NCBI GenBank assembly: GCA_016713665.1
Contig: JADJOR010000024.1
Location: 342,862 to 406,861 of the forward strand
Length of the DNA stretch: 64,000 nucleotides
Reading direction: 5' to 3'
From: Deltaproteobacteria bacterium
GTDB lineage: Bacteria > Myxococcota_A > UBA9160 > UBA4427
Part shown: in pieces, positions 20,099 through 36,599 of the stretch
How the letters are laid out: each line of letters starts with the position of its first letter
Numbering within the stretch: position 1 is the stretch's first letter
Notes under the pieces: model-generated
Seen by the model: the letters and a program-made list of their open reading frames with translations, nothing else
Database searches by the model: none
What the model was told of the DNA's origin: nothing
Made by a program: the position numbers and the translations under genes

Positions 20099-20186
20099 GG
20101 AGAGATGGCCGAGCGGTCGAAGGCGCACGCTTGGAAAGCGTGTGTAGGGCAACCTACCGTGGGTTCGAATCCCACTCTCTCCGCCA
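20099..20186 (+). tRNA. tRNA-Ser (anticodon GGA), encoded CCA
   Basis: Folded by hand. Acceptor GGAGAGA/TCTCTCC; anticodon stem CACGC/GCGTG with loop TTGGAAA; long variable arm TGTAGGGCAACCTACCG; T-arm GTGGG-TTCGAAT-CCCAC; discriminator G then CCA. Confidence 0.9.
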
Positions 20187-20194
20187 TTCAGTCT

Positions 20195-20232
20195 GCGTCT
20201 CTGGAGCATTCGGGCTCGAGACGCTTGTTGTT
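20195..20232 (+). terminator. candidate intrinsic terminator after tRNA-Ser
   Basis: GCGTCTC...GAGACGC stem (with an inner GAGC/GCTC extension) followed by TTGTTGTT. Confidence 0.5.
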
Positions 20233-20629
20233 CGGAATAATGCCGAGAATTCGCGGGGTCTTGGCGGGTCGGGTCCGTGGGATCCGAACCAGAGACCGCC
20301 AACGAGGCGCAAACTAGCGCCCATAAGCCGTCTTCGTCTCTGGCCACTCGTGCGACGGTTCGGTTTGCGGGGACGAGTGAAAGTGGGTCCACGTCACCCG
20401 CTCCGACATCGGCAACCATTCGCGCAATCGCCGACGAGTGGACGCGAATCGCGGTCGAATCTGGGGAGAATGGGTTCCGAAACTCGATCGCGATCGCGGG
20501 TTGGGCCTCGTTGCCTTCCGCCGGAGATAGTCGCCTTCGAGGGAAGAGGGAAGATGAGTCGTCCTCGTTGTGGTGTTCGACGGCCCGAACGCTCCCTCGT
20601 TCTTGCGACCCGATCACCCGTGTCAGCGA

Positions 20630-21037
20630 GACCAGTCTTCGACGACGAATCCTTGAATCGACGAAAGTCCTTCAAATTAGCGGTCTCTAGGTTCAGCTAG
20701 TTGACGTGGCCAATCGCCGCGATTTGACCATCTGCGGCTGACGGGGGGCGTCCGCTCGTCGTCAGACGCGCCCGACCCTTAGCGTGCCAGGTCGCCGCCT
20801 CCTGGTCGAAGGGAAGGATCGGCAATGCACTTCGGACGCCTACTCGAGGTAGGCCTCGATTGCTCGTCGCTTCTTCGAAGCAGTCGGTCGAGCTACTCCA
20901 TACGACAGCTCATGCCAGACGACGGAGCAGGCGATTGCGCTCGCCATCATGCTCGGAGAGGTGTTCGAGTGTCCGCTCGTTCGGGTGCGACTTGATCGCC
21001 TCGGCGAGGACGTTCGTGTCTAGCGGGTATCGGACAT
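20630..21037 (-). pseudogene. PIN-domain (VapC-type) toxin, destroyed
   Basis: The ATG at 21037 overlaps the antitoxin stop. VapC-like segments lie in three frames: (MS)RYPLDTNVLAEAIKSHPNERTLEHLSEHDGE; IACSVVWHELSYGVARPTASKKRRAIEAYLE; ALPILPFDQEAATWHAKGRARLTTSGRPPSAADGQIAAIGHVN. An in-frame TAG follows at 20699..20697, then LNLETANLKDFRRFKD. The 3' limit is approximate. Confidence 0.6.
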
Positions 21038-21318
21038 CACAGCGAGATGTCTCGCCCTGGCGATTCATCTCGCAGGTCGTCGAAGTCCTTCTCTCCGATG
21101 CCGAGATCTTCGATGTACAGGCGATTTCGGAGCTGCCTGACTGCATCGGCGAAGGAGGAGCGTTTCCCAGTTATCGCGGCGTAGTCGGAGGCCGAGAGCA
21201 GCACAGCGACAGGCTCTCCCCGACGGGTGATCTCGATGACATTGCCGTGCTGGGCGCGCTTGATAAGGCGAGAGAGGTTCTGGCGGGCTTCGGCGACGGA
21301 AACCATCGTGGGAGCCAT
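21037..21318 (-). CDS. Phd/YefM-family antitoxin
   Basis: Intact 93-aa ORF. The N-terminus VSVAEARQNLSRLIKRAQHGNVIEITRRGEPVAVLLSASDY is typical of the family. Confidence 0.85.
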   Translation of the reverse strand: MAPTMVSVAEARQNLSRLIKRAQHGNVIEITRRGEPVAVLLSASDYAAITGKRSSFADAVRQLRNRLYIEDLGIGEKDFDDLRDESPGRDISL

Positions 21319-21332
21319 TCCTGAACCCTCTG

Positions 21333-21353
21333 AATGTACATCCTAATGTACAT
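21333..21353. promoter_or_regulatory. two copies of AATGTACAT (palindromic core ATGTACAT) 12 nt apart, candidate antitoxin operator
   Basis: Copies at 21333-21341 and 21345-21353, read directly, 15-35 nt upstream of the antitoxin ATG (21318). Confidence 0.45.
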
Positions 21354-21690
21354 ACCAGTGCCGTACCCCAGGAACACGCTCGCTTTCGAGAGTGCCGTCG
21401 GGCCGTTCGCCGCGTTGCGCTCCCTCGCCATAGCGACGGCACCCTCTCGGTGCACACCGAGCTGATCCCGCTTCTTCTCGACTTCGACAACGTATTTCAG
21501 GAACACGATACCAGTGCTCGGAAATCAGCTCGAAGACAGAGGTCAAAATCCCATTCACGTCTGTTCCTGTTAAAGCTGCACGGTGACGCGTGTTGTAAGC
21601 AGCGAGTCGAAAAGTGGTCTTGCAAGTCTTAATAGATTCATTAGACATTTTTCCGAAACTCATTGACATGAAATTGCGACTGGATACCCT

Positions 21691-22149
21691 GTGCTTCCGA
21701 AAGGGATCAGCGTGCCGGTTGTCATAGCGAATCTTAAGGCCGAGTCGTTCGCGGAGATCCAGCGCAAGGTGGGCTCAGGTCTATATTCGTCGGTCTCCGA
21801 GTTCGTGGAGCTAGCGATCGCCAATCAGATCGAACTCGAGAAGCACCGAGACGACGCTCCATGGGCGCCCATTCCGTCAAGGCCCGCGACCGAGCGACAG
21901 CGCGTACCGAAGACCACTGTGCCCCAACGACGCATGTTGGCCCGGCAGTCGCCGCCGGCGTCGATCATCACAGGTCCGTACGCCGCGGACGTGCTGACCC
22001 GGCTGAGGAAGGCCGTTGCCACCGAAGCCCCGACCAACCTGTCGCTGAAGCCGCCGCCGAAAGCGAACGATGAGGCGACGGTGTGGGGCCAGGTCAATCG
22101 ATTGCTCCCGCTAAGCTGGCACTTAGGTGGATTGCGGCGCATTCGCTAG
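21691..22149 (+). CDS. hypothetical DNA-binding protein (ribbon-helix-helix-like N-terminus); may be the 5' part of the next ORF
   Basis: 152-aa ORF. N-terminus ISVPVVIANLKAESFAEIQRKVGSGLYSSVSEFVELAIANQIELEK looks RHH/CopG-like. Its 3' end overlaps ORF 22083.. by 67 nt, which indicates either a -1 frameshift near 22108-22112 or a separate GTG start at 22083. Confidence 0.5.
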   Translation: MLPKGISVPVVIANLKAESFAEIQRKVGSGLYSSVSEFVELAIANQIELEKHRDDAPWAPIPSRPATERQRVPKTTVPQRRMLARQSPPASIITGPYAADVLTRLRKAVATEAPTNLSLKPPPKANDEATVWGQVNRLLPLSWHLGGLRRIR

Positions 22150-22821
22150 AGAAGTTGGATTGGCCGGGAATCGATGAGGCGCTCGAGCCATTGGCGTCCG
22201 ACGCGGCGACGATTGGCTCCGCGCTAGAGCAGGCCGACATCGCCGCCGGCCGAATGAGAGACGATCTTCTCGCGACGGCTTTACCCAAGCGCGGGAACGC
22301 GCTCTCCTCCGACCGCTTCATCAGTCAGTACGTCGCGCGTACAACGCGAAAAGGACTTGTCCATCCCGGCGCAGCCGTCCACTACGGACTACTGCTGCTG
22401 GATTCGGATAGGCTGGCGCTGACGACGACTGGATTCGAGTTTGCGGTAATGAAGAATCCAGTCCTCGACAGCGACATAGCCAACGCCAAAGACACGCTGA
22501 CCGACGAAGAGCGACGGTACTTCGTGTCGCATGCTATACTTCACCTGCCTAGCGAGTTGTATGATTTCCGATTCACTTTGGAAATCGTGGGGTCGGGCCG
22601 CGACACCCCGGCCGACCAAATTGCGCAAGCTCGCGACCACCTCCCGAGTGAGTGGTCCGACGATGATCAGGACCCATGTAACGGGGGTCGTCGCTCGGAT
22701 GATCGATCTCGGCCTCCTCCGCCGCCGGTGGCAGGGACGCCATGTCAGATACGAGATAACGGATCTGGCCGCCGGGTTTGCGGCCCCTCACGCCAAGCAC
22801 GGAGAGCCCCATGCAGGATAG
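22083..22821 (+). pseudogene. hypothetical protein with C-terminal winged-helix-like domain; needs a frame switch near 22655-22665
   Basis: Frame-0 ORF 22083..22832 turns into Pro/Arg junk after ...DHLPSEWSDD. The wHTH-like continuation (M)IRTHVTGVVARMIDLGLLRRRWQGRHVRYEITDLAAGF is in frame 1 (ORF 22531..22821). That stop overlaps the next gene start by 11 nt. Confidence 0.5.
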
Positions 22822-25110
22822 CGATCTTCTGAATGACCTCCTAAACGCGGACAGCGAGGATGGCGCGATTGCCGCCCTCGATAGCCGCGGTCTCTTGGGC
22901 GACATGAGCCGTTGGAGGTATCTTGGCAACACACCTAATAACCAGTCGGTGGTGAACAACCAGCAGAGCACGGCGATGGCGGCTCTGGTAGAGAAGTACA
23001 CCAACGGCGTCGACGCCCTTCTACTGCGCCACTGCAAGGCTGCAGGAGTTGATCCGCGCGGCCACTCCGCGCCCGATTGTATGGACGAGGCGGTAAGCCG
23101 ATTTTTTGGCGATCTCGCGAGTCTCAGCGACGCGGACCGCCGCGCGTTCTCCGAGGACAACCTCCTTCTCTACGCGACGGGCTCTAAGGCGCGTCCATGT
23201 ATCTCGATGTACGACAACGGCGAGGGTCAGCTTCCCGAAAACTTCCCGAAGACGTTCTGTTCCCTCATCTCGGGATCCGACGAGGTTCTTACAAGGGGGC
23301 GATTAATTTTGTTCAGGGTCGCTTTAACATGGGTGGGACGGGCGTTCTTCCGTTCTGTGGCGAGAAGCGCAAGATTCAGCTCATCGTTAGCCGCGCTCCC
23401 GACGACGTCGTCGGAACGAAGGGTCACGAGTGGGCTTACACGATCATCTGTTTCTTCCCGTCGGCCAAAGATCCGTCCTGGCGCTACATGGTCGGACCGG
23501 ACGGGCAGGTGCTCACCGCCGGCTCTGGCCCCCTGAAGCTCGTGCCTCTCAAGGCGGTCAAATCAGGTGTCATCTGCAAGCCTCTCGAGCGCGCGGTTCC
23601 GAGCGGCACGCTTGTAAAGATGTACGACTTCAAGGCACCCCGTAGCAATGTGTGCGGCGAGCTGTACAAAAAGCTCGGCGAGTATCTGATCCAGCCGGCG
23701 ATTCCGTTGCGCATCATCGAATGCCGCAAGGACTATCAGGCCAATGTCATGGGAGTGACACTATGGGATCGGCTTGGCGCGTTGCTCAAGAACAATGAAC
23801 TAGAAGACGAGTGCAGAGACGGGATCGGCGTGACGGTCGAGCTGTCGACCGGTGAACAGGTTCCCGCTGAGGTAAGGGTATTCAGGCTTTCGACGAAGAA
23901 GAAGGGCGAGGACGTCGACGAGTTTCGCGTCGGACTCCGTGCTCTCATCAACGGACAGAGTCACGCTAAACGCGGCCCTGAGTTCGTGCGAGCCAAGGGG
24001 GTAGGGCTTGAGCACATCGCGGGCAGTATGCTGGTAACGCTCGACTGCACCCGATTGTGTCAGCAGTCGCGAAACGATCTTTTTATGGCGAACCGAGAGA
24101 CATTTCGCAGTGAATCGGCGCTCTGTGAAGAGCTCTTCAAGGAGTTGAAGGAGCAGCTGAGGGGCCACGATGCGCTGAAGTACCTGAATCACAAGCGGTA
24201 CGAGGAGAAGGTTAAGACCGCCGTGGATGACGAAGACGGTATCAAAGCGATGGAGGACCTTCTCGCAGAGGATCCCGAGCTCGCCGAGCTGTTTGGCGGT
24301 AAGGAATCGGGCGCGACGTCCTCCCACGCACCGACCGCGGGAGGCAGCCTGCCCGCGAAGCCGGAGCAGTTCAAAGGGGCTCAATTCCCCTCGTTCTTCC
24401 GTCGAGCTGACGGATCGACGTCGGTGGAGATGGAAGTGCCTCGTGGCGGTATTGCGCGAGTCGCATTCCACACTGACGTCCGCAACAACTATTTCACACG
24501 AAAGACCAATAGAGGCACCTGCAAGTTCAAGGGAGACTTCGCGCCGTCGCATCATCTCTATAACGGCCGACTAACGTTAGCTTGTCGTCCGCCGGCCACG
24601 GCCGTGGTAGGCACGCAGCTCGCGACCGAGGCGACGATTACGGACCCCAAGGGCTCGGGGCCGTTCACACTGATGCTAGCGGCGTCGGTCGTCGCACCTA
24701 AGCACAAAAAGCAGCCGGATCCGCGCGAGAAGAAAGAGAAGAAGTCGAAGCGGGGGCCTAGCCGTCCGCGGATCCGCGAGCGCGACGGGGATCCGACTGA
24801 GCCGCCGATCGAGATCAATCGTGAGCCCAAAACGAACCTCCTCGAAATCATTATTAACAGGAAGGCAGCGGCGCTGGAACACGCGAAGGCGAAGCGCCCT
24901 TCTGCGGAGGAGGCCGCGGTCGAGTTTGTGTTCAAGTATGGCCTCGCACTGCTCGCTATGTCGATGATCGATCGTGCGCGCGAGACTGAAAAGTGGGATG
25001 AAGACGAGCCGGATTGCCGAAAGGAAATCGGACAGACCGTGTCCGACCTTTCGCGAGTGATCGTGCCGCTTTGCCTCAATCTGCCCCAAAAGCTTCCTAA
25101 GGCGGGCTAG
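22811..25110 (+). pseudogene. GHKL (Bergerat-fold, MORC/HATPase_c_3-like) ATPase, ~766 aa if one frameshift at ~23282-23286 is repaired
   Basis: ATG 22811 follows GGAGAG. The N-box EKYTNGVDA and G1 box YDNGEG lie in frame 2 (ORF 22778..23536). The G2 box GRFNMGGTG and the remaining 600+ codons lie in frame 1 (ORF 23197..25110). One extra G in GACGAG|GTTCT would give ...SGSDEGSYKGAINFVQGRFNMGGTG.... This could be a sequencing error rather than a true pseudogene. Confidence 0.7.
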
Positions 25111-26309
25111 CGGAGGCGGTGAATCAGGAGGTACTCGGTGGCTGCGTCGACGTCGCCCTGTAGCTTCGCGTACCACTTGCGATTTGCGACGCGCCGCTCG
25201 ATGCGATCGTCGTGCAGGTCAGAACTTCGCACCTCATAGAAGCCCGCCTGTTCCATGGCTGTTAGGTACAGGGGTAGCTGTTCAGCGACTCTTGAGAACC
25301 CAACGATCTGGACCACGGTGCCATCGCGGTGCAATACGCGCGCAACGGAACTGAATGCGCTCACGATCATTTCAAAATAATTGCGGATGCCGGTGGGCGT
25401 GCGGCTTCCTCCACAATAGTAGGATAAGCCCGCACCGTCGGTCCTATTCGCGATCCAGTAGGGCGCGGGTGTCTCGCGTCGTCCCCGATATTGCCACCGA
25501 TGGTAAAGGACGTGGACGCCAGGGTAGGGAGGCGATGTGAATACGAGGCGAGGTTTGCTTCGCAGCGATCTGATCCGGCTATCACGATCGATGCCAGCCG
25601 CCGAGCGGTGCAAGAGCATCCGGTGTCCGGTGATCGCATTCTTTGAAATCCCGGACTCCCTGCAACTAGCGACGAACTCGCGCAGGCCGAGAATCATGTC
25701 GTCGACGTACGCTGGTAGCCGCTCGGCGAGGCGAGACCGTCGCGGCGCTGAGAAGTCCCGGCAGTCGAGCGCCCACTGGCCGAGCCGGAGAAGCGCTGCC
25801 CTGGCGAAGGCGCGTCGCCTTGGGAGCATGTCTGCTGCTAGCTGCAACGCACCGGCCATGAACAGCTCGGTTGCTCTCGGCAGATTTCGAATTCCGGCTA
25901 GCTCGACCCAAGAAAGATCTGGGTCCACAAGCCGAACGGCTGCTCGATCTGCCCAGCGGCGGACGCTGTCCTCGTCGGCGGGCGATAGCGGTTGCGTACG
26001 GACATCGCTGACGAAGTGCGCGAGGGAGTTGATGTCAATACCAACCATCCGGCGCCCGAGCGTCAACCCTTCGACGATGCTCGTGCCCCCGCCCATGAAT
26101 GGATCGAGCACCCAACTCCCTCGTCGGGAGAACGCTGAGATCACGTCTCGCGCAACCTCGGGGTGAAATCGAGCGGGATAGCTGTAGAAGCTATGGGTTC
26201 CACCGGCCGAGTTCGTGTAGGCCGTCGTCGACAGCGACTCTGAGAGAACGCGGATCGTATCTCCACTGAGTCGAGACTCGGCGTGGGCGTCTGTGGTTAT
26301 CCACGGCAT
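25107..26309 (-). CDS. DNA methyltransferase (N6-adenine/N4-cytosine type; motif I before motif IV)
   Basis: Intact 400-aa ORF. AdoMet motif VLDPFMGGGTS near residue 70 and catalytic LVFTSPPYPG near residue 258. Convergent with the GHKL gene, overlapping it at the stop codons. Confidence 0.85.
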   Translation of the reverse strand: MPWITTDAHAESRLSGDTIRVLSESLSTTAYTNSAGGTHSFYSYPARFHPEVARDVISAFSRRGSWVLDPFMGGGTSIVEGLTLGRRMVGIDINSLAHFVSDVRTQPLSPADEDSVRRWADRAAVRLVDPDLSWVELAGIRNLPRATELFMAGALQLAADMLPRRRAFARAALLRLGQWALDCRDFSAPRRSRLAERLPAYVDDMILGLREFVASCRESGISKNAITGHRMLLHRSAAGIDRDSRIRSLRSKPRLVFTSPPYPGVHVLYHRWQYRGRRETPAPYWIANRTDGAGLSYYCGGSRTPTGIRNYFEMIVSAFSSVARVLHRDGTVVQIVGFSRVAEQLPLYLTAMEQAGFYEVRSSDLHDDRIERRVANRKWYAKLQGDVDAATEYLLIHRLR

Positions 26310-26712: not shown

Positions 26713-28371
26713 TCAACCAACGTTGACCTTGATTAGGCTGCGATGATCAATCCAGTTAAGTGGTAGGCGGGGCGCTCGTCTCAGCATTTCGGTGGTGAGA
26801 TTGCTTGGCTGCGAGCCAGCAACGATCTGAGCAACGACCTCGGGAGCCAGGAACGCGAGCGGCATCAGTTGCCCTATGTACCGGTCGCTGATCGCTTCAG
26901 CTTTGGCGATCTCGAGGAGCGAGCTGGATCGACCAGACGAGAGGTCGTCGAACCAGACTCGAGCTCGAGAAATTGCCTTGATGAGCACGGAGTCCACTGG
27001 CAAATCGCTGACCCAAGATCCGTCCTCCGCGATCACCAGTCGAACCTCATTCCCCCGCTTCCTCATCTCGAACGGAATCGCGTGCCGAAGCGAGGCGTCG
27101 AGGTCCTTCATCAACTCGGAGAGCCCCACCTCGATTATGAGCTGGCCCTTGTCGAGATCCACCCGCCTGATGGATCGAAGCAGATCGCGATCGCACCGTT
27201 GCGCGCGGCTGAGTAGCTCCGGAAGAAGGTTCTCTTTGACTTTGGCCGCGCGTGCTAGCCGAGCGAGGTGTAAGGAATTCGCGAAGAGAGACCGAACCGA
27301 CTTCTCGACCGTCTTCTCGATCTCATGCGCCGAAAGTCGCCACCGCGGACCGCTGCGTTCGCCCTCGTTGTCTCCGGCCGTCTGAAGATCCCGAGAGACG
27401 TAGTACCGATACCGCTTTCCGCCCTTGATCGTGGAGGTCGGCACCAGCGGAACCCCCTTCTCGTCAAAGAGTCTCCCCATGAGCGGATGTTGCATCGTTG
27501 TTCGGGTTGATGTCCGCCGTGCCGGCGCCTGGCTCGCCATCTGCTTCTGGACCGCGTCCCAGGTCTCCAGGTCAATGATCGCCGGATGCTGCCCCTCATA
27601 GCTCTCCGCCTTGTGCGGAATCCGCCCGATGTAGACCGGATTGCTAAGCAGGTGATAGAGCGCCCCCCGACTGAAGGACCGCCCACCCGCGATTCGGTTG
27701 TGCTTCCCCGGTCTCGCCTTCGACCGAATCCTTCTCCGATCCGCCGCCTCTTTGAGCGCGCGCACGCTGCCCAGCTCGAGATACATCCGAAAGATCTCCC
27801 GAACCGTATTCGCCTCCGACTCGACGATCTTCAGCGTCCGCCCCTCCGCCTCGTACCCCAGCGGCACGAGCCCACCCATCCAGAGTCCCTTCCGCTTCGA
27901 GGCCGCGATCTTGTCCCGGATCCGCTCCCCCGTGACCTCCCGCTCGAACTGAGCAAACGAGAGCAGCATGTTGAGCGTGAGCCGCCCCATCGAGGTCGTC
28001 GTGTTGAACTGCTGGGTGACCGAGACGAACGAGACCTGCTGCGCATCGAGGACGTCGACGATCTTCGCGAAGTCGGAGAGCGAACGCGTCAGCCGATCGA
28101 CCTTGTAGACGACGACCGTTTGGACGCGCCCTTGCTCGATGTCATCGAGGAGCCGCTTCAGGGCAGGTCTCTCCATCGTGCCCCCGGAGTACCCGCCGTC
28201 GTTGTAGCCGGTCTCGACGAGCTTCCAGCCCTCGCTCTTCTGGCTCCGGATGTAGGCCTCGCACGCCTCCCGCTGCGCGTCGAGCGAGTTGAAATCCTGC
28301 TCGAGTCCCTCCTCGGAGGACTTCCTCGTGTAGATCGCGCAGCGCCGCGTTCGCGTCTCAGGCTTGGCCAC
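26713..28371 (-). CDS. large serine recombinase
   Basis: 552 aa. Resolvase catalytic N-terminus CAIYTRKSSEEGLEQDFNSLDAQ...VVVYKVDRLTRS, followed by a recombinase domain. Confidence 0.9.
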   Translation of the reverse strand: MAKPETRTRRCAIYTRKSSEEGLEQDFNSLDAQREACEAYIRSQKSEGWKLVETGYNDGGYSGGTMERPALKRLLDDIEQGRVQTVVVYKVDRLTRSLSDFAKIVDVLDAQQVSFVSVTQQFNTTTSMGRLTLNMLLSFAQFEREVTGERIRDKIAASKRKGLWMGGLVPLGYEAEGRTLKIVESEANTVREIFRMYLELGSVRALKEAADRRRIRSKARPGKHNRIAGGRSFSRGALYHLLSNPVYIGRIPHKAESYEGQHPAIIDLETWDAVQKQMASQAPARRTSTRTTMQHPLMGRLFDEKGVPLVPTSTIKGGKRYRYYVSRDLQTAGDNEGERSGPRWRLSAHEIEKTVEKSVRSLFANSLHLARLARAAKVKENLLPELLSRAQRCDRDLLRSIRRVDLDKGQLIIEVGLSELMKDLDASLRHAIPFEMRKRGNEVRLVIAEDGSWVSDLPVDSVLIKAISRARVWFDDLSSGRSSSLLEIAKAEAISDRYIGQLMPLAFLAPEVVAQIVAGSQPSNLTTEMLRRAPRLPLNWIDHRSLIKVNVG

Positions 28372-28912
28372 GGCGTCTCTCCTTCAGGCCGAAGAAGCGA
28401 GGTCCGGACCAGTGGGCGCCGGTGATCTCCTGGGCGACGGCAGAGAGGGAGGGCCAGTCGCGGTCTCGGTATCGGACGCCCTTCTCGAGGACGATCACCT
28501 CGTGGGTCGTGCCTTGCCATTCGCGCAGGAGTCGGGTCCCGGGCTTGATCTTGACGCGAGGCGGAGAAGGAGAGCGGCCTGCCTTCAGAGCGGCGGCAAC
28601 CTGATCGAGGCGGCGACGCGTCGCGCGATCGAGGCCGCCGAGGACCTTCTCCTGGATGCGGTAGGCGACGGCGTAGAGGAGGAGCTTTCGGCTGATAAAG
28701 GGCGGGCAGGGCGTCTCGTAGTGATCGGTCCAGCGCTCTCGAAGCGCTTGTCGAGAGAGCGTCTTCAGCGCTTCGAGCTTGTCGTGAAGCGCATCGGGAT
28801 GGGTCTTCGGTCGTCGTCCCACAGAACCTCCGGATTCGGGTTCCGGGGCCGGGCTCGAGGTCCGACGTTCGTCGCGGAGCGGGGGTCCCGGAGACCCCTG
28901 GTTGGCGTGCAT
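28358..28912 (-). CDS. DUF2924-family protein (recombinase-associated)
   Basis: C-terminal LREWQGTTHEVIVLEKGVRYRDRDWPSLSAVAQEITGAHWSGPRFFGL is typical of DUF2924. Overlaps the recombinase start by 14 nt. Confidence 0.75.
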   Translation of the reverse strand: MHANQGSPGPPLRDERRTSSPAPEPESGGSVGRRPKTHPDALHDKLEALKTLSRQALRERWTDHYETPCPPFISRKLLLYAVAYRIQEKVLGGLDRATRRRLDQVAAALKAGRSPSPPRVKIKPGTRLLREWQGTTHEVIVLEKGVRYRDRDWPSLSAVAQEITGAHWSGPRFFGLKERRRGQA

Positions 28913-29083: not shown

Positions 29084-30604
29084 TCACGTTCTCAGTTTCC
29101 GGTCGCACCGGTGTCGCTCGACCCGTGGATCGCCCGTTCGCTCGGCGGTGCGGCATCGAATCGAGATCGCCTCGCAGCAATCGACTCTGCCCCCGCTCAG
29201 CCGACGCGGATCGTCGGCTCTGCGGCCCCAGACCAGAAACTGCGAAAGGCTGTCGATCTGATCGTCGAATCGCCCGTCCGGGAACGCGAGGATCTCGGCG
29301 ATGAAATCCTTCCTGCCAAGCTGGCGGACTCGGGAAGCAACACGCACCCCTTCGATCAGGTCGGTCTGCCCCTCGAGCCGCACCATCTTCTCCCGTTCCG
29401 GCCGGATCGCCACCGGACGGATTATCCCCGCTGCGATTGAGGTCCTGGATCAGCGGGTCCCTGTCCCCGCGTCCTCGATCAAGACTTTCCTGGGCCGAAA
29501 GTGATTCGAGTGCGCCAGGACCCTTCGCCGGAGGTCCGGGTACTCGAGTCGGGCGCGCAGGACGTCGAGCAGGTAGATTCGTTCCGCGCACTGAGCCACG
29601 TCGTGCAAACCGAATAATCGTTGTTCGCGATCGGTCTTCGAGGCGATGTCCCAGCTCTGAACGATTTGATCCCCGCTCTCACTCGCCGGCGGCCGCGAGA
29701 ACGCCCGAAACCATTCTCCCTGGATGACCGCGCCCCCCGGGGGGACAGGCGGCTGCTGGTACTGGGCCGAGAAGGTCAGACTCGACTCCTGGAGGCCTTC
29801 ACCTGGTCGAGCGCGCCCTCGGCTCGCGCGCCGGGTGCAGGACCTCCCCGATCGCGCGGCGATAGACAGCCCATGGCCCAGGTCGATCGCCTGCGGGCTC
29901 TTCCGCGATCGCCGGGAGGTTCAAGATCCGCCAAGACGGGTCCCGTTCGAGGACATGGCCGACGAGGTCGTCGCAGTGGAGGCGCTGCATCACGATCACG
30001 ATCGAGTCCTCGGTCTTCTGGTCGAGACGCGAGGAGAGGGTCGAGTCGTACCAGCCATTGACCGCCGATCGCCTCGTCTCCGACATGGCATCGTCGGGCT
30101 TCAGTGGGATCATCGATGATGATGAAATCGCCGCCCCGGCCTGTCAGCGTACCGCCCACCGAGGTTCCCAGGCGATAGCCGCGGGCTGTCGTTTCAAACT
30201 CGACCTCGGTGTTCTTACGCTTAGCTGAGCCGTGTTCTTGGGAAGAGCCTCCTTGATACCAGGGGCTCTCCATCACGAGACGGCAGTCCCGCGCGTGCTT
30301 TGGAAGTCAGATCTTGCGAATAGCTGACGGCGATGAGTCGCGCGCAGGGGTTGTGGCCGAGAACGAAGGCCGGGAAGGCGACCGACGCGCAGATCGATTT
30401 GAGGCTCCGAGGCGGGAGCGTGATGATGAGGCGCCGGATCTCGCCCCGCACCACCTGGTCGAGCCGGTAGGCGATGGCTTCGAGGTGCCAGTTCGGCAGG
30501 AACGACGGACCGGGCGAGACGGTGTGGAAGCATCGCTCGACGAAGGCTACGAAATCATGCCGGAGAATCGCCCGGACAACGGCGCGCTCGTCCTCCCGCT
30601 TCAC
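29084..30604 (-). pseudogene. phage terminase large subunit, multiply frameshifted
   Basis: Terminase-like segments lie in different frames. They are: FLPNWHLEAIAYRLDQVVRGEIRRLIITLPPRSLKS (30221..30604); KHARDCRLVMESPWYQ / RRLFPRTRLS / AKRKNTEVEFETTARGYRLGTSVGGTLTGRGGDFIIIDDP; LKPDDAMSETRRSAVNGWYDSTLSSRLDQKTEDSIVIVMQRLHCDDLVGH (29799..30113); NDYSVCTTW; and the C-terminal FIAEILAFPDGRFDDQIDSLSQFLVW (29084..29413). Confidence 0.75.
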
Positions 30605-31053
30605 TACGTCGGCTCCTTCTCATCTCCCGGCTGGACCTCCGACACACGATTCGCTTGGCGACGCTGCATCCGCTCGACGTAATGGTTCAGGATCGCCTGC
30701 TCATCGGGGCCGAGAACATCCTCGAGCTCGGACGCGCCCTCGCCGGTTTCGAGTAGGCGCAGGGTCAGCGAGGCGAGAAGCGACGATGCTCGAGCGTCGC
30801 CTTTGATGGCGCGGTTCGTCAGGGCTTTCACCATCGCGCGCTGCTTGCTGATCCGCCGGGATCGGTCTCCCTCGCGAATGTCGATCGTCTCGGCAAGCTC
30901 CTCGCGCAGGTCGGTCTTGAGGTTCTTCGTTCCCTTGGGTCTGCCCTTCGGGTTCCCCGATCGGCCCGGCTTGAACTGGGTGTGCTTGGGTGGCTTGCCG
31001 TAGCCGACCTCGAAATCCTCGCCGGGTCGCTGCTTCGATTTCGCATCCGACAT
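30604..31053 (-). CDS. DUF5681-like protein (often found upstream of terminase)
   Basis: 149 aa. N-terminus GYGKPPKHTQFKPGRSGNPKGRPKGTKN is typical of the family. Its stop overlaps the terminase GTG (TAGTG). Confidence 0.7.
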   Translation of the reverse strand: MSDAKSKQRPGEDFEVGYGKPPKHTQFKPGRSGNPKGRPKGTKNLKTDLREELAETIDIREGDRSRRISKQRAMVKALTNRAIKGDARASSLLASLTLRLLETGEGASELEDVLGPDEQAILNHYVERMQRRQANRVSEVQPGDEKEPT

Positions 31054-31161: not shown

Positions 31162-32481
31162 TCATTGAAGGGTTGCCCCGTCTCGACGTGAGTCGCCTTC
31201 GAGGCCTGCGTGCTCGGCCATCCGGCGGATCGCGGCGTCGACGTAGCGAGGCTCGAGCTCGAGCCCGTACCCGATGCGACCGGTCCGCTCCGCGGCGAGC
31301 AGCGTCGTCCCCGAGCCGGCAAACCCGTCGAGGACGACGTCTCCTCGCCGGGAGCAGTCGAGGATCGCGTCGGCGACGAGCCGAACGGGTTTCACCGTCG
31401 GGTGCATGGCCAGCGCCTTGTCGCGATCGGTGCCGAACGTGTTCACGCCGGCGTAGCGCCAGACATTGCTGCGATACCGCCCGTGGCGACCCAGCTCGAC
31501 ATTGTTCACGTGCGGGGCCGTTCCGACCTTGAAGACGTAGACGAGCTCGTGTTGCGAGCGGTAAAGAGAGCCCATCCCGGCGTTCGTCTTGACCCAGACG
31601 CAGAGGTTCTTGCACTCGCTGTAGACCGAGCTGCTCGCTGCGAGCAGCTCCCGCGAGTGCCGCCAGTCCATGCAGACGAAGTGGAGGGCGCCGTCCCGGC
31701 TGTGGGCGGCATGGTGCCCAAGAGCCTTTTCCAGGAAGGCCGTGAACTCCGCCTCGCTCATCTCGCCGCTCGCCATCACGAACTCGGCGTGCCGGGCACG
31801 ACCCAGGCCGGACACGTGCCCGGCGATCCGCACGTTATAGGGAGGGTCGACGAAGACGAATGCCGCCTGCTTGCCCTCGAGCAGCTGGGCATACGCATCG
31901 CCGTCGAGGGCATCCCCGCAGAGAAGCCGGTGCGGACCGATCTTCCAAAGATCGCCCGGCCGTGAGACCACCGGAGCGTTCGGATCGAACCCGGTCGAGG
32001 CGTCGGCGGGGTCCGACTCGACGCCCTCCGCGCCGCCGCCGATCCAGAGATCGATCTCGGCGGTCTCGAAGCCGATCACCTCCAGGTCGAAGTCGAGGTC
32101 CATCTCGGTCAGGCCCTGCAGCTCGATCGCGAGCAGATCCTTGTCCCAGCCGGCAAGCTCGGCGAGGCGGTTGTCGGCGATCACGAGGGCGCGGACCTGG
32201 GCCTCGGAAAGGTGCTCGAGCTGGAGGGTCGGGACCGTCTCCATCCCGAGCTGCTTCGCGGCGCGAACTCGGCCGTGGCCGGCGATGATCGTGCCGCCTG
32301 CGTCGATCAGGATCGGGTTCGTGAACCCGAAGGTCTCGATCGACTTAGCAATCTGGCGGATCTGCTTTTCGCTGTGCGTTCGTGGGTTGCCGCGGCGCAG
32401 AGCGAGCGAAGAGATCAGCCGTTGCTGGATCTGAAGGTTCTGGAGTCCTGAGAGACGCGTAGACGGGTCATGTTTTTCCAT
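31162..32481 (-). CDS. ParB-like nuclease domain fused to N6/N4 DNA methyltransferase (beta-class order)
   Basis: 439 aa. N-terminal ParB-like region NPRTHSEKQIRQIAKSIETFGFTNPILID...GHGRVRAA, then DPPYN (motif IV) before DGFAGSGTT (motif I). Confidence 0.9.
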   Translation of the reverse strand: MEKHDPSTRLSGLQNLQIQQRLISSLALRRGNPRTHSEKQIRQIAKSIETFGFTNPILIDAGGTIIAGHGRVRAAKQLGMETVPTLQLEHLSEAQVRALVIADNRLAELAGWDKDLLAIELQGLTEMDLDFDLEVIGFETAEIDLWIGGGAEGVESDPADASTGFDPNAPVVSRPGDLWKIGPHRLLCGDALDGDAYAQLLEGKQAAFVFVDPPYNVRIAGHVSGLGRARHAEFVMASGEMSEAEFTAFLEKALGHHAAHSRDGALHFVCMDWRHSRELLAASSSVYSECKNLCVWVKTNAGMGSLYRSQHELVYVFKVGTAPHVNNVELGRHGRYRSNVWRYAGVNTFGTDRDKALAMHPTVKPVRLVADAILDCSRRGDVVLDGFAGSGTTLLAAERTGRIGYGLELEPRYVDAAIRRMAEHAGLEGDSRRDGATLQ

Positions 32482-32553: not shown

Positions 32554-33264
32554 CTACGGCCCCGCCGCTCCCTCTTCCCGGCTTCCTTCATGGATCAGCC
32601 GGGCTGCGTAGTGGCCGTTGAACTCCGGATCGATCAGCTTGCCCGCCGCGTCGACGAAATCCCCGAAGGGGTCTCGCTCGCGTCCCAAAGCATTCTGCCT
32701 GGATGTGCCTCGACCCGTGAACTCGGTCCAGATCTGGAAGAGGCTAAAGGCGAATCGGCGAGCGGGAACATCCGCCGGGGCTCCGCGCCCGTCCTCTGCA
32801 CGGATCTCCTCGCGGAGAGCCGCGATGGCCGCCAAAACCGTCTGCGCAATGCCCTCGAGCGGCTCGGACTCTCGCTCAATGGCGGTGATGAGATCATGAA
32901 TTCGGCGAGGCCGAAGCTGCCACTGCAAGCGACGGCGAAGCACGGGATTCGACGTTTGAAGGGACTCGAGGGCATCGAGCGCCCGATGATGGTCCGCCTC
33001 GATCTCCTTCGACCGGAAGACCGTCTCCAGGTTCTTTAAATCTTGCAGGTCGCTGCGGATGGGCTTCGCCTTGGCTGTTCTCGAGCGCGCCGTCTTGAGG
33101 TCTTCGAGCCGATTGTAGATTTGATCGCGGGCTGCACTGGCTCTTTCCGGATCGGTGATCTCCAGCATCGCGACGACAGTGGTGAGTTCGGCTTCGTCGA
33201 CCTCAATCCCCTCGACGTAGCCGCCCAGAGATACGGTATCGAGACTTCTCGGCATGGCGGTCAC
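32554..33264 (-). CDS. hypothetical protein
   Basis: 236-aa ORF with protein-like composition, co-oriented with the prophage-like module. No motif recognised. Confidence 0.55.
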   Translation of the reverse strand: MTAMPRSLDTVSLGGYVEGIEVDEAELTTVVAMLEITDPERASAARDQIYNRLEDLKTARSRTAKAKPIRSDLQDLKNLETVFRSKEIEADHHRALDALESLQTSNPVLRRRLQWQLRPRRIHDLITAIERESEPLEGIAQTVLAAIAALREEIRAEDGRGAPADVPARRFAFSLFQIWTEFTGRGTSRQNALGRERDPFGDFVDAAGKLIDPEFNGHYAARLIHEGSREEGAAGP

Positions 33265-33795: not shown

Positions 33796-33838
33796 AGAAT
33801 TGGGTTTCATGCTCGGGGCTCCTTTCGGGGAGCCGGGA

Positions 33839-34063
33839 ATGCGAGGGGCCCTTCACACACAGCGCTACCGGCGCTTTCTCGATCGGCTGAAAAATGCCCG
33901 GGTCGAGGCGGGGCTTACGCAGGCTGAGGCCGCCGCCAAGCTCAAGAAGCCCCAGTCCTTCGTCTCGAAATGCGAGGCCGGCGAGCGACGGGTCGACGTC
34001 ATCGAGCTCGAAGACTTCGCGAAAGCCTACGGGCGGCCCATTCTCTTCTTCTTTCGCTCCTGA
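33839..34063 (+). CDS. XRE-family helix-turn-helix regulator (phage-repressor-like)
   Basis: Core LKNARVEAGLTQAEAAAKLKKPQSFVSKCEAGERRVDVIELEDFAKAY. The alternative upstream start at 33800 cannot be excluded. Confidence 0.75.
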   Translation: MRGALHTQRYRRFLDRLKNARVEAGLTQAEAAAKLKKPQSFVSKCEAGERRVDVIELEDFAKAYGRPILFFFRS

Positions 34064-34071
34064 TTCTATTC

Positions 34072-34095
34072 CGGGATATCCCATAACGGGATATG
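34072..34095. promoter_or_regulatory. CGGGATATCC(C) and CGGGATATG motif copies 2 and 3
   Basis: Read directly. They lie immediately downstream of the XRE gene stop. Confidence 0.35.
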
Positions 34096-34288
34096 TGTGT
34101 AGCCGACCGCCGATCTTCGCGGAGGCTACCGGTGCAGCGTCATTTTCATCGGCTGATCCCACCCCACCCAATCTGCTGCTGCCCGCCCTTCGCGGCACTC
34201 GGTCCTTGCCGAGTCCCTGCGAGATCGCTGGCCGGCCTTGCCAGCATGACCGCCCGATCGCTCCCCGCGCCATCGGAGCGCGTGCGCG

Positions 34289-35026
34289 GTGGATGAGTAC
34301 GGGATTCACCCGTCGCTCGAGCTGCGACGGCTTTTCGCGAGTCAAGCCATTCCGAGCCAGGGTCAATCCATTGGGTGCGCCCGCGTCGTCTTCGTCGGGC
34401 TCGACGCGAATTACTCGGCCCAACTGCTCGACTACCCCGAATTCTTCGAACGGATACTGGAGTACCACCAGGACGGCGTCGCGTTCTGGAAAAGGCACGC
34501 GGTTCATCATCCGTTTCTGCTCGCGGAATATCCGCTCTCCCGAGATCGAGGTGGCGTCCCCTACCATCGCCGGTTCAGCCAGATGGGTCTGTCGCCGGAG
34601 TTCGCCGAGCAAGTCTCTTTCGTCGAGCTATTGAATGTCCCGACTACGGGAAGAACGATGGAGTCCGTGTTCTGGGATCTATTCGATCCAGGCTACGCGC
34701 AGCGACTCGTAGACCTGCTGACGGACGGATCCAGGCGGCTGGTCGTCCTGTCCGGCAGTGTTCATCGAACGCTCAGCGCGGCAGCCCGGCGCACCGCGCT
34801 GCGAGTTCCGCGGCTGGATCTGCCTCGCGTTGGCAGCGAGCAGCGAATCGGGGAAAGTCGAATCGTCCAGTGGAGGCATTTTTCGAGCGCGATCAGTCAA
34901 CGAGAGCTGGTCGGCATGGGCGATGAGATTCGGGCGTTCGGCGATGCGGTTTCGGAAGATCCCGCAGTCTTGAGTTCGACAGCGTCATCCAGCGGCTCGA
35001 GTCAGCCCGACTCGCCGCTTCCGTAA
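34289..35026 (+). CDS. hypothetical protein
   Basis: 245-aa ORF with reasonable composition. No family recognised. Confidence 0.5.
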   Translation: MDEYGIHPSLELRRLFASQAIPSQGQSIGCARVVFVGLDANYSAQLLDYPEFFERILEYHQDGVAFWKRHAVHHPFLLAEYPLSRDRGGVPYHRRFSQMGLSPEFAEQVSFVELLNVPTTGRTMESVFWDLFDPGYAQRLVDLLTDGSRRLVVLSGSVHRTLSAAARRTALRVPRLDLPRVGSEQRIGESRIVQWRHFSSAISQRELVGMGDEIRAFGDAVSEDPAVLSSTASSSGSSQPDSPLP

Positions 35027-35059
35027 TCCGGAAAGACTTCTCGTGGTCGACGAGGTCAG

Positions 35060-35253
35060 CATCTACCCGACGACGCGCCAGGAGGCGATCCTGTTCTTTC
35101 GGATTGCTGCGTACCGCTACGGACGGGGCTCGATCCAAATCACGACGAGAAAGGGGTTTCGAGTGGCCGGCAGTGCTGGCCGGCCGCGAAGTGTTGGCGA
35201 CGGCGATTCTCGACCCGCTGCTCAACCAAAGCCAGACCCTTGGCGCGGCCTAA
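35060..35253 (+). pseudogene. IS21-type IstB helper ATPase, C-terminal fragment with frameshift
   Basis: EAILFFRIAAYRYGRGSIQITTRKGF, then in another frame EWPAVLAGREVLATAILDPLLNQSQTL, then stop TAA at 35251-35253. Compare the IstB consensus ...RYERGSIILTSN..F.EW...F.D...A.AILDRLLHH. Confidence 0.5.
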
Positions 35254-35507
35254 TGCGATATCTGGCGCTCTTCGCGATCGACCTGACGACGCGGCGAATC
35301 GTCATTGCAGGAATGTCGCCTTCGCCCGACGGCCACTGTGTGGATCAGCTCGCTCGAAACCTCACCGATGGCGACCAAGGCTTCCTCGCGGGTAGTCGGT
35401 ATTTGATTCACGATCGCGATCCGTTGTTCACGAATTCGTTCGAAGTGATTCCTCGAGAGTGCAGGCGTCGAGCCAGTTCGCCTCGCCATTATTCGATACC
35501 AAGTTGA
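35253..35507 (+). pseudogene. rve (DDE integrase-core) transposase internal fragment
   Basis: MRYLALFAIDLTTRRIVIAGMSPSPDGHCVDQLARNLTDGDQGFLAGSRYLIHDRDPLFTNSF resembles the catalytic core of the rve family. It is truncated at both ends. Confidence 0.5.
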
Positions 35508-35554
35508 TTTTGCTGAGTTTTCCTGCGCATTCGGGCTGAGGCTATTGTCGCCGG

Positions 35555-36599
35555 ATGCCCTTCAATCTCTCCGCAGTTCTCTCCATTGCCGCTGCTGTTC
35601 TCAGGGACCGTGCCGATCTCGTCGCCGAGAATGGGGCATTGCGCCACCAACTTTCATGCTTAATACATCGAGGGCGTAGACCCAGGCTCCGTCCCGTCGA
35701 TCGCTTCTTCTGGGTTCTGTTGTCTCGCTTCTGGAGTGGCTGGAGGGAAAGTCTGGCGATGGTGAAGCCAGCCACCGTCTTGGCCTGGCATCGCAAGGGC
35801 TTCAAACTCTATCAGGCGGTGGAAGAGTCGGAAGCGCGGTCTCGGGCGACCTCGAATCCCCGTAGAAGTTCGAAAGCTGATCATCCAGATGGCAGGAATG
35901 AATGTTGGTTGGGGCGCTCCACGAGTTCACGGCGAGTTGCTCAGGCTGGGCATTGAAATATCGGAGATCTCCGTTTCACGCTATATGCCCAAGCGCCCCG
36001 CGCCAGCGGGCTCCCGACAGCGATGGGTAACGTTTTTGCAAAATCACTTGCACGAGATTCTTGCAGTCGATCTCGCCATCGTGCCTACGGCGACGTTTGG
36101 CATTCCCTACGTGTTCTTCGTCCTGAGCCTCGACCGGCGGCGAGTCCTTCATTTCAACGTGACCCCACACCCAACTGCGGATTGGACGGCCCAACAAGTA
36201 GTAGAAGCCTGCGCGTTCGATTCGCCCGGTCGTTTTCGGATTCGCGACAATGACAAGATTTACGGGATGAAATTTCGCAGTCGGGTCGATGGGCTCGGAC
36301 TCAAGCAGATACGCACAGCTTTTCGGTCTCCATGGCAGAACGGTTTTGCCGAAAGATGGATTGGCAGCCTACGAAGAGATTGCCTGGACCATGTAATCGC
36401 GATCAATGAGCGCCAGCTTCGGCGTGTGATCCGGTCGTACGTTGACTACTACCACGCGGATCGAACCCACCTCGGACTAGAAAAGGACGCTCCTGAAAAG
36501 CGACCGATCGAACCCCGAAAAATCGGAGCGGTCGTCGCATATTCACGGGTCGGCGGGCTTCATCATCGCTATACGCGCGAACTTCGGAGAGCTGCCTAG
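35555..36599 (+). mobile_element. rve-domain (DDE) transposase gene with one frameshift (~35810-35816)
   Basis: ORF 35555..35956 (…DRADLVAENGALRHQLSCL...VKPATVLAWHRKGFKLY) continues in the next frame as RRWKSRKRGLGRPRIPVEVRKLIIQMAGMNVGWGAPRVHGELLRLGIEISE..., which is ORF 35889..36599 (…RIRDNDKIYG...SPWQNGFAERWIGSLRRDCLDHV). One extra G sits in TATCAGGCGGTGG. Confidence 0.75.

Follow-up and report, generated by a model that had tools for sequence, protein, structure and literature searches.

The 64,000-nucleotide stretch analysed here (hereafter the window) belongs to contig JADJOR010000024.1 of a metagenome-assembled genome (MAG; GenBank assembly GCA_016713665.1), and its GC content drops abruptly within a tRNA-Ser(GGA) gene. 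The low-GC block that follows probably constitutes, and we hold this with some reserve, one composite integrative element of ~46.9 kb (20187 to ~67,077), which is located at the extreme 3' end of the tRNA gene and belongs to a family characterised by a large serine recombinase (LSR) and a DUF2924 protein. Its distal end lies outside the window and was located on other contigs; labels such as L001 or L112 denote the public assembly, metagenome or viral contigs that were compared with the window. The LSR encoded in the block probably is, as judged from sequence, the enzyme that inserted the island. The observations that carry this reading are the boundaries of the block, a core sequence repeated at both of them, the divergence of strains at the distal core, alternative occupants of the same junction, the association of the recombinase family with tRNA genes, and end motifs that the island shares with the loci of related recombinases. 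The left boundary comprises the following features.

20099 to 20186, plus strand: tRNA-Ser(GGA), predicted by ARAGORN and matched by the Rfam tRNA model with 61 bits; the gene is native to the GC-rich flank and acts as the left attachment site (attL) of the island.
20181 to 20202, plus strand: 22-nt core CCGCCATTCAGTCTGCGTCTCT, consisting of the last 6 nt of the tRNA and 16 nt of spacer; repeated exactly at the distal junction beyond the window.
20195 to 20224, plus strand: conserved hairpin right after the tRNA, followed by TTGTTGTT in the window copy.
20187 to 20648, plus strand: leader, the attL-proximal arm, with the motif order AGTCTGC, AATTCGCGGGG, CCGAACCAGAGAC, GTCTCTGG, GGTTCGGTTT.

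In 1-kb windows, the GC content ranges from 0.61 to 0.77 left of the tRNA gene (mean 0.696) and from 0.55 to 0.68 to its right (mean 0.615). A single change point, placed by maximum likelihood, falls at 20130 within the tRNA gene (log-likelihood ratio 203), both sides differ in 500-nt windows (Mann-Whitney p = 6e-16), and the mean GC content of genes at third codon positions (GC3) is 0.88 left of the tRNA and 0.72 to its right. Because the change point lies inside the tRNA gene and both GC and GC3 drop there, the compositional switch at the tRNA is real and sharp. A preliminary description of this DNA had proposed such a switch from spot counts of 47, 37 and 27 G+C in single lines of 60 nt, all of which were exact on recount, and had taken the tRNA 3' end for the left edge of a horizontally acquired composite island, a view that is supported here. 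Its right limit of 36.6 kb has to be moved. Low GC persists to 64000 and further, past the window end, position 36599 marks an internal module border only, and the element reaches ~67.08 kb in window-equivalent coordinates.

On the GC-rich side, an independent contig that is ~95% identical to the window (L217) enters the same tRNA gene by 30 nt and then ends; the tRNA thus is part of the GC-rich chromosome, and assemblies break inside it. A second core-side relative (L216; 80-85% nucleotide identity, GC 0.69-0.76) is syntenic with the window from 11.4 to 18.9 kb. Both stop before or within the tRNA, and no downstream context is visible in them. The left 20 kb encode KstD-like flavoproteins, a cytochrome P450, acyl-CoA dehydrogenases, TauD and an epoxide hydrolase. 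The epoxide hydrolase, the Phd antitoxin and the LSR of the window are identical to the NCBI records MBK7952311, MBK7952313.1 and MBK7952317, respectively, which lie on a contig of 412,509 bp. When species-representative genomes were scanned with the flanking epoxide hydrolase, the nearest relatives were found in Myxococcota MAGs (61-69% amino acid identity), with neither synteny nor the tRNA. As these MAGs are too distant and lack synteny, an empty-site comparison is impossible with species representatives.

No second copy of the tRNA 3' end occurs within the 64-kb window in exact or approximate searches allowing up to 14 mismatches per 50 nt. To this extent the preliminary statement that there is no direct repeat was correct, but a repeat does exist ~3.08 kb past the window end. 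Two contigs that are 99.9% identical to the window from 55.4 to 64 kb (L001 and L004) carry a pseudo-tRNA 3' end there, and this half-site, GAGACGGGTTCGCGACGGACTCCCCCCACCGCCA, lies 555 nt after a second P450 gene. In L001 and L002 it is followed by TTCAGTCTGCGTCTCT, which together with the preceding CCGCCA forms an exact 22-nt copy of window positions 20181-20202. With respect to the distal core (short form CCGCCATTCAGTCTGCGTCTC), L005 matches in 21 of 22 nt, and the core of L004 has diverged. The displaced tRNA fragment as a whole consists of GGGTTCG...CCACCGCCA plus the 22-nt core in direct orientation, and only 6 nt of the tRNA proper are exact. Past the core, L001 and L004 contain a 75%-identical copy of window positions 20181-21353, comprising the leader (likewise 75% identical) and an intact VapC/Phd toxin-antitoxin (TA) pair. 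Six contigs from different samples are identical through CCGCCA and diverge directly after this motif or after the core, and the assembly of L006 ends exactly at CCGCCA. The junction falls at ~67,077 in window-equivalent coordinates, which gives the island its length of ~46.9 kb. Within the MAG itself, the genes past the window end are represented by records MBK7952351-54 as far as the second P450, 555 nt short of the junction.

The same core is also present after genuine tRNA-Ser(GGA) genes in related organisms (L097, L100) and at the ends of other elements (L098, L099, L101, L103); no integrase was found adjoining the element ends in L098 and L218. A metagenome scan with the 21-nt core yielded seven short contigs only, which are informative for variants of the attachment (att) site and not for its context. 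For the hairpin after the tRNA, the RNAalifold consensus is kept in nine att copies with compensatory changes in two pairs, and a simple terminator scan did not call positions 20195..20224. This structure possibly is the tRNA terminator or a part of the att site. An Rfam search of the leader returned the tRNA itself as the sole match.

Beyond the junction, L218 encodes a TA pair and an 853-aa pentapeptide/BNR protein at a GC content of 0.62-0.66 and further right, ~5 kb beyond the junction, FMO, FadL, NUDIX, TIR and GMC genes at 0.68-0.72. Since the GC content recovers there, the low-GC block is bracketed by GC-rich DNA. In L218 and L220, a different low-GC island with HAF/pentapeptide and FG-GAP proteins is found at the same junction, and its end is related but distinct. 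The module right of the distal junction in L002 (11900-16863) consists of a Phd antitoxin, a type I restriction-modification system (HsdM, HsdS) and an AAA_15/DUF4276 pair. The alternative occupants in L218, L220 and L002 thus identify the junction as an integration hot spot, which also gathers defence-type genes, as the restriction-modification system of L002 indicates. The TA/853-aa islet and the other neighbouring occupants lack any recombinase. Degenerate tRNA-Ser copies elsewhere are signs of repeated integration: a second partial tRNA-Ser 3' half follows the TA pair of L004 next to insertion sequence (IS) fragments (14090-14145), and on the reverse strand of L102 (~1476-1570) a near-complete tRNA-Ser look-alike without the 5' acceptor strand precedes core and leader.

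The assignment of a recombinase to this island starts from two overlapping genes. Genes were called with a codon model, and their proteins were scanned against Pfam, PADLOC and PHROGs.

26713 to 28371, minus strand: LSR, 552 aa (PF00239 Resolvase, E 1e-39; PF07508 Recombinase, E 3e-16).
28358 to 28822, minus strand: DUF2924 protein (PF11149, E 3e-44), which overlaps the LSR start codon by 14 nt.

The LSR has a resolvase catalytic domain followed by a Recombinase domain, in a protein within the range of ~450-700 aa. It matches the PHROG integrase family phrog_95 (E 6e-96), and the closest solved structures of its catalytic domain are the TP901-1 and SPbeta integrases. The C-terminus has no Pfam zinc-ribbon match at E < 0.01, and residues 427-547 match a PHROG 'recombinase' family. 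Recombinases of the Wolbachia phage WO are 35-36% identical to the window LSR. For the DUF2924 protein, no solved structural relative was found. The preliminary description had noted a serine recombinase without a tyrosine integrase and had regarded the former as the wrong kind of enzyme for a tRNA site. The first part stands: neither Pfam searches nor tblastn with the integrase of L212 revealed a tyrosine-integrase gene, or any remnant of one, in the window, L001, L002, L004, L218 or L219. The second part does not, as relatives of the LSR adjoin tRNA 3' ends, mostly of tRNA-Ser, and sequences of the island ends recur beside them.

LSR relatives were taken from viral contigs, where 51 loci contain a full-length match. 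Eight of these have a convergent tRNA gene 230-433 nt past the LSR stop codon, in the same orientation as in the window. The adjoining tRNAs are Ser-GGA (L112, L161), Ser-CGA (L119, L141), Ser-TGA (L129), Arg (L135) and Val (L152, L153). From the tRNA density of the same loci, 0.19 such cases would be expected by chance (Poisson p 3e-11). One additional contig (L131) ends within the 3' end of a Ser-like tRNA 319 nt after the LSR, so that 9/51 relatives lie next to a tRNA, six of them next to a Ser or Ser-like one; in L194, tRNA-Ser(GCT) is convergent at a distance of 2.7 kb from the LSR. Many contigs of the remaining relatives end 250-540 nt past the LSR, too early for a tRNA to show. The DUF2924 gene adjoins the LSR in 87/89 related loci and is located directly upstream in most.

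Motifs of the island ends provide a second link to this family. The motif order of the leader recurs in the spacer between tRNA-Ser and the LSR stop codon of L112 and L119, and also in L113. Repeats of TTCCCTG/CAGGGAA, often ~21 nt apart, cluster between the LSR stop codon and the tRNA in L119, L135, L161 and L113, and the same repeats cluster just before the distal pseudo-tRNA in L001, L002, L004 and L218, the background in the window being 0.08 per kb. In L113, whose LSR is 55% identical to that of the window, the repeats are followed by the half-site GAGACGGGTTCGCACCAGACTGCGTCCTCCGCCA, the spacer GCCAGTCT, the leader and then the LSR stop codon, and the arrangement in L124 and L202 is similar to that of L113. 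Scans of the viral contigs for the core and for the half-site gave no matches. The heptamer clusters extend over 3942-4249 in L119, 6019-6202 in L135, 6197-6372 in L161, 12483-12645 in L001 and 13933-14075 in L218. Their spacing of ~21 nt corresponds to two helical turns, and candidate binding proteins are DUF2924 and a ParB-methylase fusion encoded in the same module.

Several points weigh against an insertion of the whole block by this LSR. In the window, the enzyme is encoded 6.5 kb from the tRNA, compared to 0.2-0.4 kb in most relatives (it lies next to the att site in nine of them), and the region beside it (26.3-26.7 kb) yielded weak alignments only and no att remnant. The strict half-site pattern occurs in two viral loci vs 0.85 expected by chance, which is not significant. 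No second copy of the tRNA end was found in the eight tRNA-abutting LSR relatives, whose contigs are too short. The att sites of characterised large serine integrases are simple, span ~50 bp and have no arm repeats. Both the distal junction and the GC-rich DNA to its right come from other assemblies and not from the MAG's own sequence, and neither an empty site nor a circular attP junction of the island was recovered. Exact look-ups of the epoxide hydrolase, a KstD-like protein, Phd, a 637-aa protein of the block and the LSR returned no entries in the public assembly index. The core side through at least the LSR gene (~28.4 kb) is known from this MAG only, and continuity across 28.4-31.3 kb is without independent support. 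Finally, a 131.6-kb contig from another sample (L212) contains, at 11600-20300, segments of the island's catabolic cargo that are 98-99% identical and rearranged around IS66 copies, and these segments sit beside a tyrosine integrase and an AAA-ATPase/S8-protease pair, which presumably resembles a known anti-phage pair.

Part of this evidence would suit an island that was inserted by a tyrosine integrase and then lost this gene, being cis-mobilizable or decayed, so that the LSR/terminase cassette would be an unrelated nested phage remnant. A tRNA 3' end combined with a displaced tRNA fragment is what tyrosine integrases classically leave behind, their attP sites typically have arm-type repeats, the LSR is 6.5 kb away from attL, and the cargo segments of L212 directly adjoin a Phage_integrase gene. 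However, none of the island and junction contigs searched contains a tyrosine-integrase gene or remnant, and L212 has no copy of the core or of the tRNA end near its integrase. Moreover, the leader, the CAGGGAA repeats and the half-site recur directly beside related serine recombinases, and it is these enzymes that adjoin tRNA 3' ends far above chance. We consider a lost tyrosine integrase unlikely, if worth keeping in view.

Sequence identity to other populations divides the island into two layers, which meet at one internal border.

34750 to 35050, no strand: border at which the lineage-specific backbone gives way to the cargo of recent exchange, as placed by mismatches to population contigs.

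The mismatches to population contigs amount to 5-55 per 250 nt left of this border and to ~1-3 per kb right of it. Identity between the window and the population shifts sharply at ~35.0 kb and is ~99.9-100% from 35.0 to 64 kb, 98.2% from 34 to 35 kb, 92% from 33 to 34 kb and 96-98.6% from 31.3 to 33 kb; left of 31.3 kb, the best non-self relatives share 80% (LSR) and 84% (Phd) of their amino acids. Sixteen contigs are collinear with the window from 31.3 to 64 kb at 99.2-99.9% identity, and identical cargo proteins occur in 46-78 blocks of the public assembly collection. For the core-side epoxide hydrolase, the one public relative with at least 90% identity is L217, from outside the samples where the cargo was found. 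These comparisons suggest a lineage-specific backbone (20.2-35.0 kb) next to a cargo (35.0-~67 kb) that different lineages have come to share recently. At the least the cargo must have been shared recently, because it is ~99.9-100% identical in many independent metagenomes. The earlier characterisation of the island as 'probably old or composite' is thus apt in its second term and not in its first.

With cargo ~100% identical and backbone diverged, homologous recombination is needed somewhere, and it might even be the whole mechanism: modules with a similar leader and TA pair could have been swapped between leaders after DNA uptake, with no dedicated recombinase involved. The leaders are indeed 60-80% similar over at least 300 nt in all variants, and the L212 segments have been reshuffled at IS copies. 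Against such cassette exchange, the break point is the same nucleotide in all six strains, following CCGCCA or the 22-nt core, instead of varying within the leader, and on the element side the junction has a conserved half-site and repeats which are also found next to serine recombinases. Homologous exchange as the sole mechanism appears improbable.

The source being a MAG, an assembly chimera that joins a GC-rich organism to a 60%-GC organism, at the tRNA gene or within the multi-copy recombinase/terminase cassette, also has to be considered. Near-identical tRNA-Ser genes exist in related organisms (L097), the core-side and tRNA-proximal proteins occur in this MAG only whereas the cargo proteins are found in the 46-78 blocks, the MAG contains no relative with at least 90% identity to the right-flank proteins of the cargo-bearing population, and a 545-nt poly-C tract in the cargo probably represents a local assembly error. 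Nevertheless, a chimera is very improbable: the leaders and TA pairs on both sides are only 75% identical and the common core is only 22 nt long, so that no long identical repeat is available for mis-joining; identity falls gradually from cargo to backbone (100, 98, 92-96%) without an abrupt change to unrelated sequence; the MAG's protein accessions are continuous across the junction; and the cargo-bearing population has its own pseudo-tRNA-Ser end with GC-rich DNA past it, and therefore the island at a tRNA-Ser-type site is real in whichever genome. On a different contig, of 39,178 bp, a MAG with protein accessions close to those of the window (probably the same genome) encodes a VapC/Phd pair (MBK7951173, MBK7951174) with 90% identity or more to the distal pair of the L001 type, and this pair could mark the displaced flank, a further tRNA-Ser locus or another strain within the bin.

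Read as a single element of the DUF2924-LSR family, the block would begin with attL (tRNA, 22-nt core, leader), followed by accessory genes (a decayed VapC/Phd pair, a 637-aa protein, an orphan methylase) and by a reverse-strand, phage-like integration module comprising LSR, DUF2924, a pseudogene of the terminase large subunit (TerL), DUF5681, the ParB-methylase, a 236-aa protein and an HTH regulator. The next ~32 kb would be IS-riddled catabolic and efflux cargo, and the P arm with the TTCCCTG/CAGGGAA repeats and the pseudo-tRNA half-site GAGACGGGTTCGCGACGGACTCCCCCCACCGCCA would close the element. At attR, the same 22-nt core would be followed by the displaced flank (leader, intact VapC/Phd, the 853-aa repeat protein) and the GC-rich chromosome. 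We infer from this arrangement that attP, composed of the repeats, the tRNA-like half-site, the ~21-nt core and the leader, would recombine with the 3' end of tRNA-Ser(GGA), with the window LSR as the presumed catalyst. The tRNA would stay intact after the insertion, since the same final 6 nt and the hairpin after them are brought in by the element, and the original flank would be displaced by ~47 kb. The 6.3 kb between leader and LSR could represent a later accessory insertion, as could the 2.7 kb in L194. The cargo (35.0-67 kb) would subsequently have been exchanged between lineages, by transfer and then recombination within the conserved element backbone; this order of events and route of transfer are likewise conjectural.

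The remaining genes of the backbone are the following.

20649 to 21068, minus strand: VapC/PIN toxin pseudogene; the intact PIN protein of L001 (139 aa) aligns in tblastn at 60% identity over 129 aa, and two in-frame stop codons interrupt the alignment.
21037 to 21318, minus strand: intact Phd/YefM antitoxin (PF02604, E 6e-14); the next best relative is 84% identical.
23197 to 25110, plus strand: 637-aa protein with a strong coding signal, convergent with the methylase gene (4-nt overlap).
25107 to 26309, minus strand: orphan N6/N4 DNA methyltransferase, type II-like (PF01555, E 6e-14; PADLOC MTase_II).
29234 to 30616, minus strand: TerL pseudogene, to which the intact 503-aa TerL of L111 aligns as four pieces in different frames (E 3e-116).
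30604 to 31053, minus strand: phage-associated DUF5681 protein (PF18932, E 8e-24; phrog_26239), located upstream of TerL in relatives.
31162 to 32481, minus strand: fusion of ParB-N and an N6/N4 DNA methyltransferase (PF02195 and PF01555; PADLOC MTase_II, E 7e-89).
32554 to 33264, minus strand: conserved 236-aa cassette protein, 49% identical to the first open reading frame (ORF) of L111, which has the same position.
33800 to 34063, plus strand: HTH_3 regulator of the Cro/CI type (PF01381, E 3e-9).
35889 to 36599, plus strand: IS fragment with an rve_3 integrase core (PF13683, E 7e-11) at the left cargo edge; the same ORF occurs in seven public contigs.

The gene list of the preliminary description (TA module, two DNA methylases, serine recombinase, terminase relics, repressor and IS fragments) was essentially right. 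The TA module is not an intact VapBC/Phd-PIN pair, as only the antitoxin is intact and the toxin contains two in-frame stop codons. A 'defence-like cassette' was also proposed, for which there is no support: the 637-aa protein has no match in Pfam, PADLOC or PHROGs, and no exact copy among public assemblies. Its ORF converges on the orphan methylase (23197-26309) and could encode an uncharacterised restriction partner. The intact ORF of L111 matches Terminase_6C and the PHROG terminase large subunit (E 6e-108), and the frameshifts of TerL in the window may be sequencing errors. The position of DUF5681 is conserved in 32 related loci. The ParB-methylase is 76% identical to its homologues in L111 and L191, which share the same cassette order, and the 236-aa protein has no family match in Pfam, PADLOC or PHROGs. 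Only the broken TerL, DUF5681 and the ParB-methylase are phage-like, and no structural-protein families (capsid, portal, tail, lysis) were found among the island ORFs in the Pfam and PHROGs scans; the module thus does not qualify as a prophage.

The trio of ParB-methylase, DUF5681 and TerL accompanies LSR-DUF2924 in ~40% of the loci in several permutations. Together, the ParB-methylase, DUF5681, TerL, DUF2924 and LSR genes form a compact ~6-kb cassette in several circular permutations, which was seen in L111, L115, L191, L193-L197 and ~35 other viral-contig loci. Genes for capsid, portal or tail are missing from the interval between TerL and recombinase, and this cassette could be a capsid-less, helper-dependent element. 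The terminase may, speculatively, hint at packaging by a helper phage. No terminal overlaps indicating circularity were found in the viral contigs.

The cargo consists of two parts separated by an anomalous tract.

36673 to 54886, no single strand: catabolic cargo, part 1 (Pfam).
54887 to 55431, plus strand: near-pure poly-C tract of 545 nt (GC 0.79, GC skew -0.5); the minus strand reads as a poly-glycine ORF.
55432 to 64000, plus strand: cargo, part 2 (Pfam), 99.9% identical to L001-L006.

Part 1 encodes two DUF35/thiolase-like pairs, two P450s, two thioesterases, amidohydrolases, a Rieske oxygenase and an SDR enzyme, and also contains two XRE-cupin regulators, an IS fragment (43468-44280) and a broken amidohydrolase gene (38898-40193). 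It is collinear and 99.2-99.9% identical in ten contigs from other samples. The poly-C tract is missing from L001, L005 and L006, and an IS3-family element occupies this site in L003 and L004; it probably is an assembly artefact at an IS-polymorphic site. Part 2 comprises an IS66 fragment, a TetR regulator, an RND efflux pair (MFP and AcrB), a P450, an alpha/beta hydrolase and the start of a 368-aa gene. Past the window end follow a TPR protein, the second P450, the CAGGGAA repeats and, at ~67.08 kb, the pseudo-tRNA half-site.

An old internal duplication (~71-73% nucleotide identity) involves the amidohydrolase (38898-40193 vs 52311-53540) and the XRE-cupin regulator (40238-40849 vs 53941-54579). 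The first amidohydrolase copy is split into two ORFs, and since the same split is present in the independent assemblies L087-L095, it is not a sequencing error. The 420-aa P450 (41334-42596) is named 'cholest-4-en-3-one 26-monooxygenase' in one public source, the thiolase-like/DUF35 pairs (36673-38255) resemble enzymes of steroid side-chain degradation, and the GC-rich flank likewise carries KstD-like and acyl-CoA dehydrogenase genes. Based on these similarities, the island may extend an existing capacity of the host for sterol or lipid degradation.

Among known systems, the ssrA islands of Dehalococcoides are catabolic, have a low GC content and lie in tandem, with 20-bp repeats of the tmRNA 3' end as their borders. 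Their reverse-strand module by attL encodes a ParB-domain protein, a Mom homologue and a serine recombinase of ~540 aa; fifteen islands without this module were proposed to be cis-mobilizable (McMurdie et al., 2011; PMC3146451). The element described here resembles them in its low-GC catabolic content, in the tandem or alternative arrays after a tRNA-like gene, in the direct repeat of ~20 bp at the 3' end, and in the reverse-strand module with a serine recombinase of ~540-550 aa, a ParB-domain protein and a DNA-modification protein, a likeness of described gene content and layout. As in the Dehalococcoides arrays, the core is found at the tRNA gene and at the distal junction, with a further degenerate copy after the TA pair of L004. 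In contrast to these islands, the target is tRNA-Ser instead of tmRNA, the host belongs to a different phylum, the partner of the recombinase is DUF2924 and not the small second serine recombinase DsiA, and a terminase and DUF5681 are also present. Furthermore, 6.5 kb separate the recombinase from attL, which it adjoins in Dehalococcoides, and the six-gene Dehalococcoides module (DsiB, DsiA, RecF-like, ParB, Mom) is not found.

The recombinase of the Acidithiobacillus phage AcaML1 (JX507079) is 48% identical to the window LSR over 366 aa, which cover the catalytic and recombinase domains. AcaML1 also has a small ORF directly upstream of the recombinase, and its attB is listed as 'srrA', which we read as the tmRNA gene, with 10-nt direct repeats. 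Unlike the island, AcaML1 has structural genes and no catabolic cargo, being a complete temperate phage of 59 kb, its recombinase is annotated as large and small subunits, and its repeats are only 10 nt long. SCCmec elements with CcrAB offer another parallel, as large serine recombinases there insert cargo-rich, non-phage and non-conjugative islands at the 3' end of a conserved gene, with direct repeats of ~15-20 bp and the possibility of tandem composites (see also PMC3146451). However, SCCmec targets rlmH (orfX), requires both CcrA and CcrB, and lacks a terminase or ParB-methylase module.

The tRNA-gene islands of tyrosine integrases (Islander/Williams) share the intact tRNA, the displaced 3' fragment, the compositional break, cargo, TA genes and tandem arrays. 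The island differs from these in that no tyrosine integrase is aboard and the fragment is degenerate, with 6 nt exact and identity mostly downstream of the tRNA. Thus, of the features used by Islander, the intact tRNA is present here and the displaced fragment is present in other assemblies, while the tyrosine integrase is absent. The att-bounded tandem islands at one hot spot also recall cis-mobilizable elements (CIMEs) and their accretion (ICEberg 2.0, PMC6323972; Guedon et al., 2017, PMC5704250), but in contrast to CIMEs the island has a full-length recombinase of the family that matches its ends.

A tRNA-linked genomic island as such is ordinary, and it is the recombinase assignment and the near-identical catabolic cargo that carry the interest. 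In the literature no description of DUF2924-LSR elements at tRNA genes was found, although coverage was incomplete and one may exist. Exceptions at tmRNA are already known from the Dehalococcoides islands, and from AcaML1 if 'srrA' is the tmRNA gene. As a broader and tentative suggestion, which we would not call likely, DUF2924-LSR pairs might be a widespread integrase family for tRNA 3' ends, chiefly of tRNA-Ser, with complex att sites (a tRNA-mimicking half-site, a ~21-nt core over the tRNA end and hairpin, CAGGGAA arms ~21 nt apart) and a capsid-less, helper-packaged minimal unit of ~6 kb, which would carry tens of kb of catabolic cargo between species.

If true, tRNA targeting by DUF2924-LSR elements would run counter to the common view that tRNA genes are specified by tyrosine integrases alone. 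Islander-type tools require a tyrosine integrase by design and would miss or mis-delimit such islands, which would be under-counted if a common serine-recombinase family targets tRNA-Ser. A 'missing' att repeat can also simply fall outside the window under study. As large serine integrases are favoured tools of genome engineering, a family with a universal tRNA target and a small partner would be worth testing. The cargo itself appears to be a pollutant- or sterol-type degradation gene set that is near-identical in many environmental samples. With 32 kb of ~99.9-100% identity next to a backbone and host flanks that differ, it would represent a recent spread of a degradation pathway among uncultured Myxococcota.

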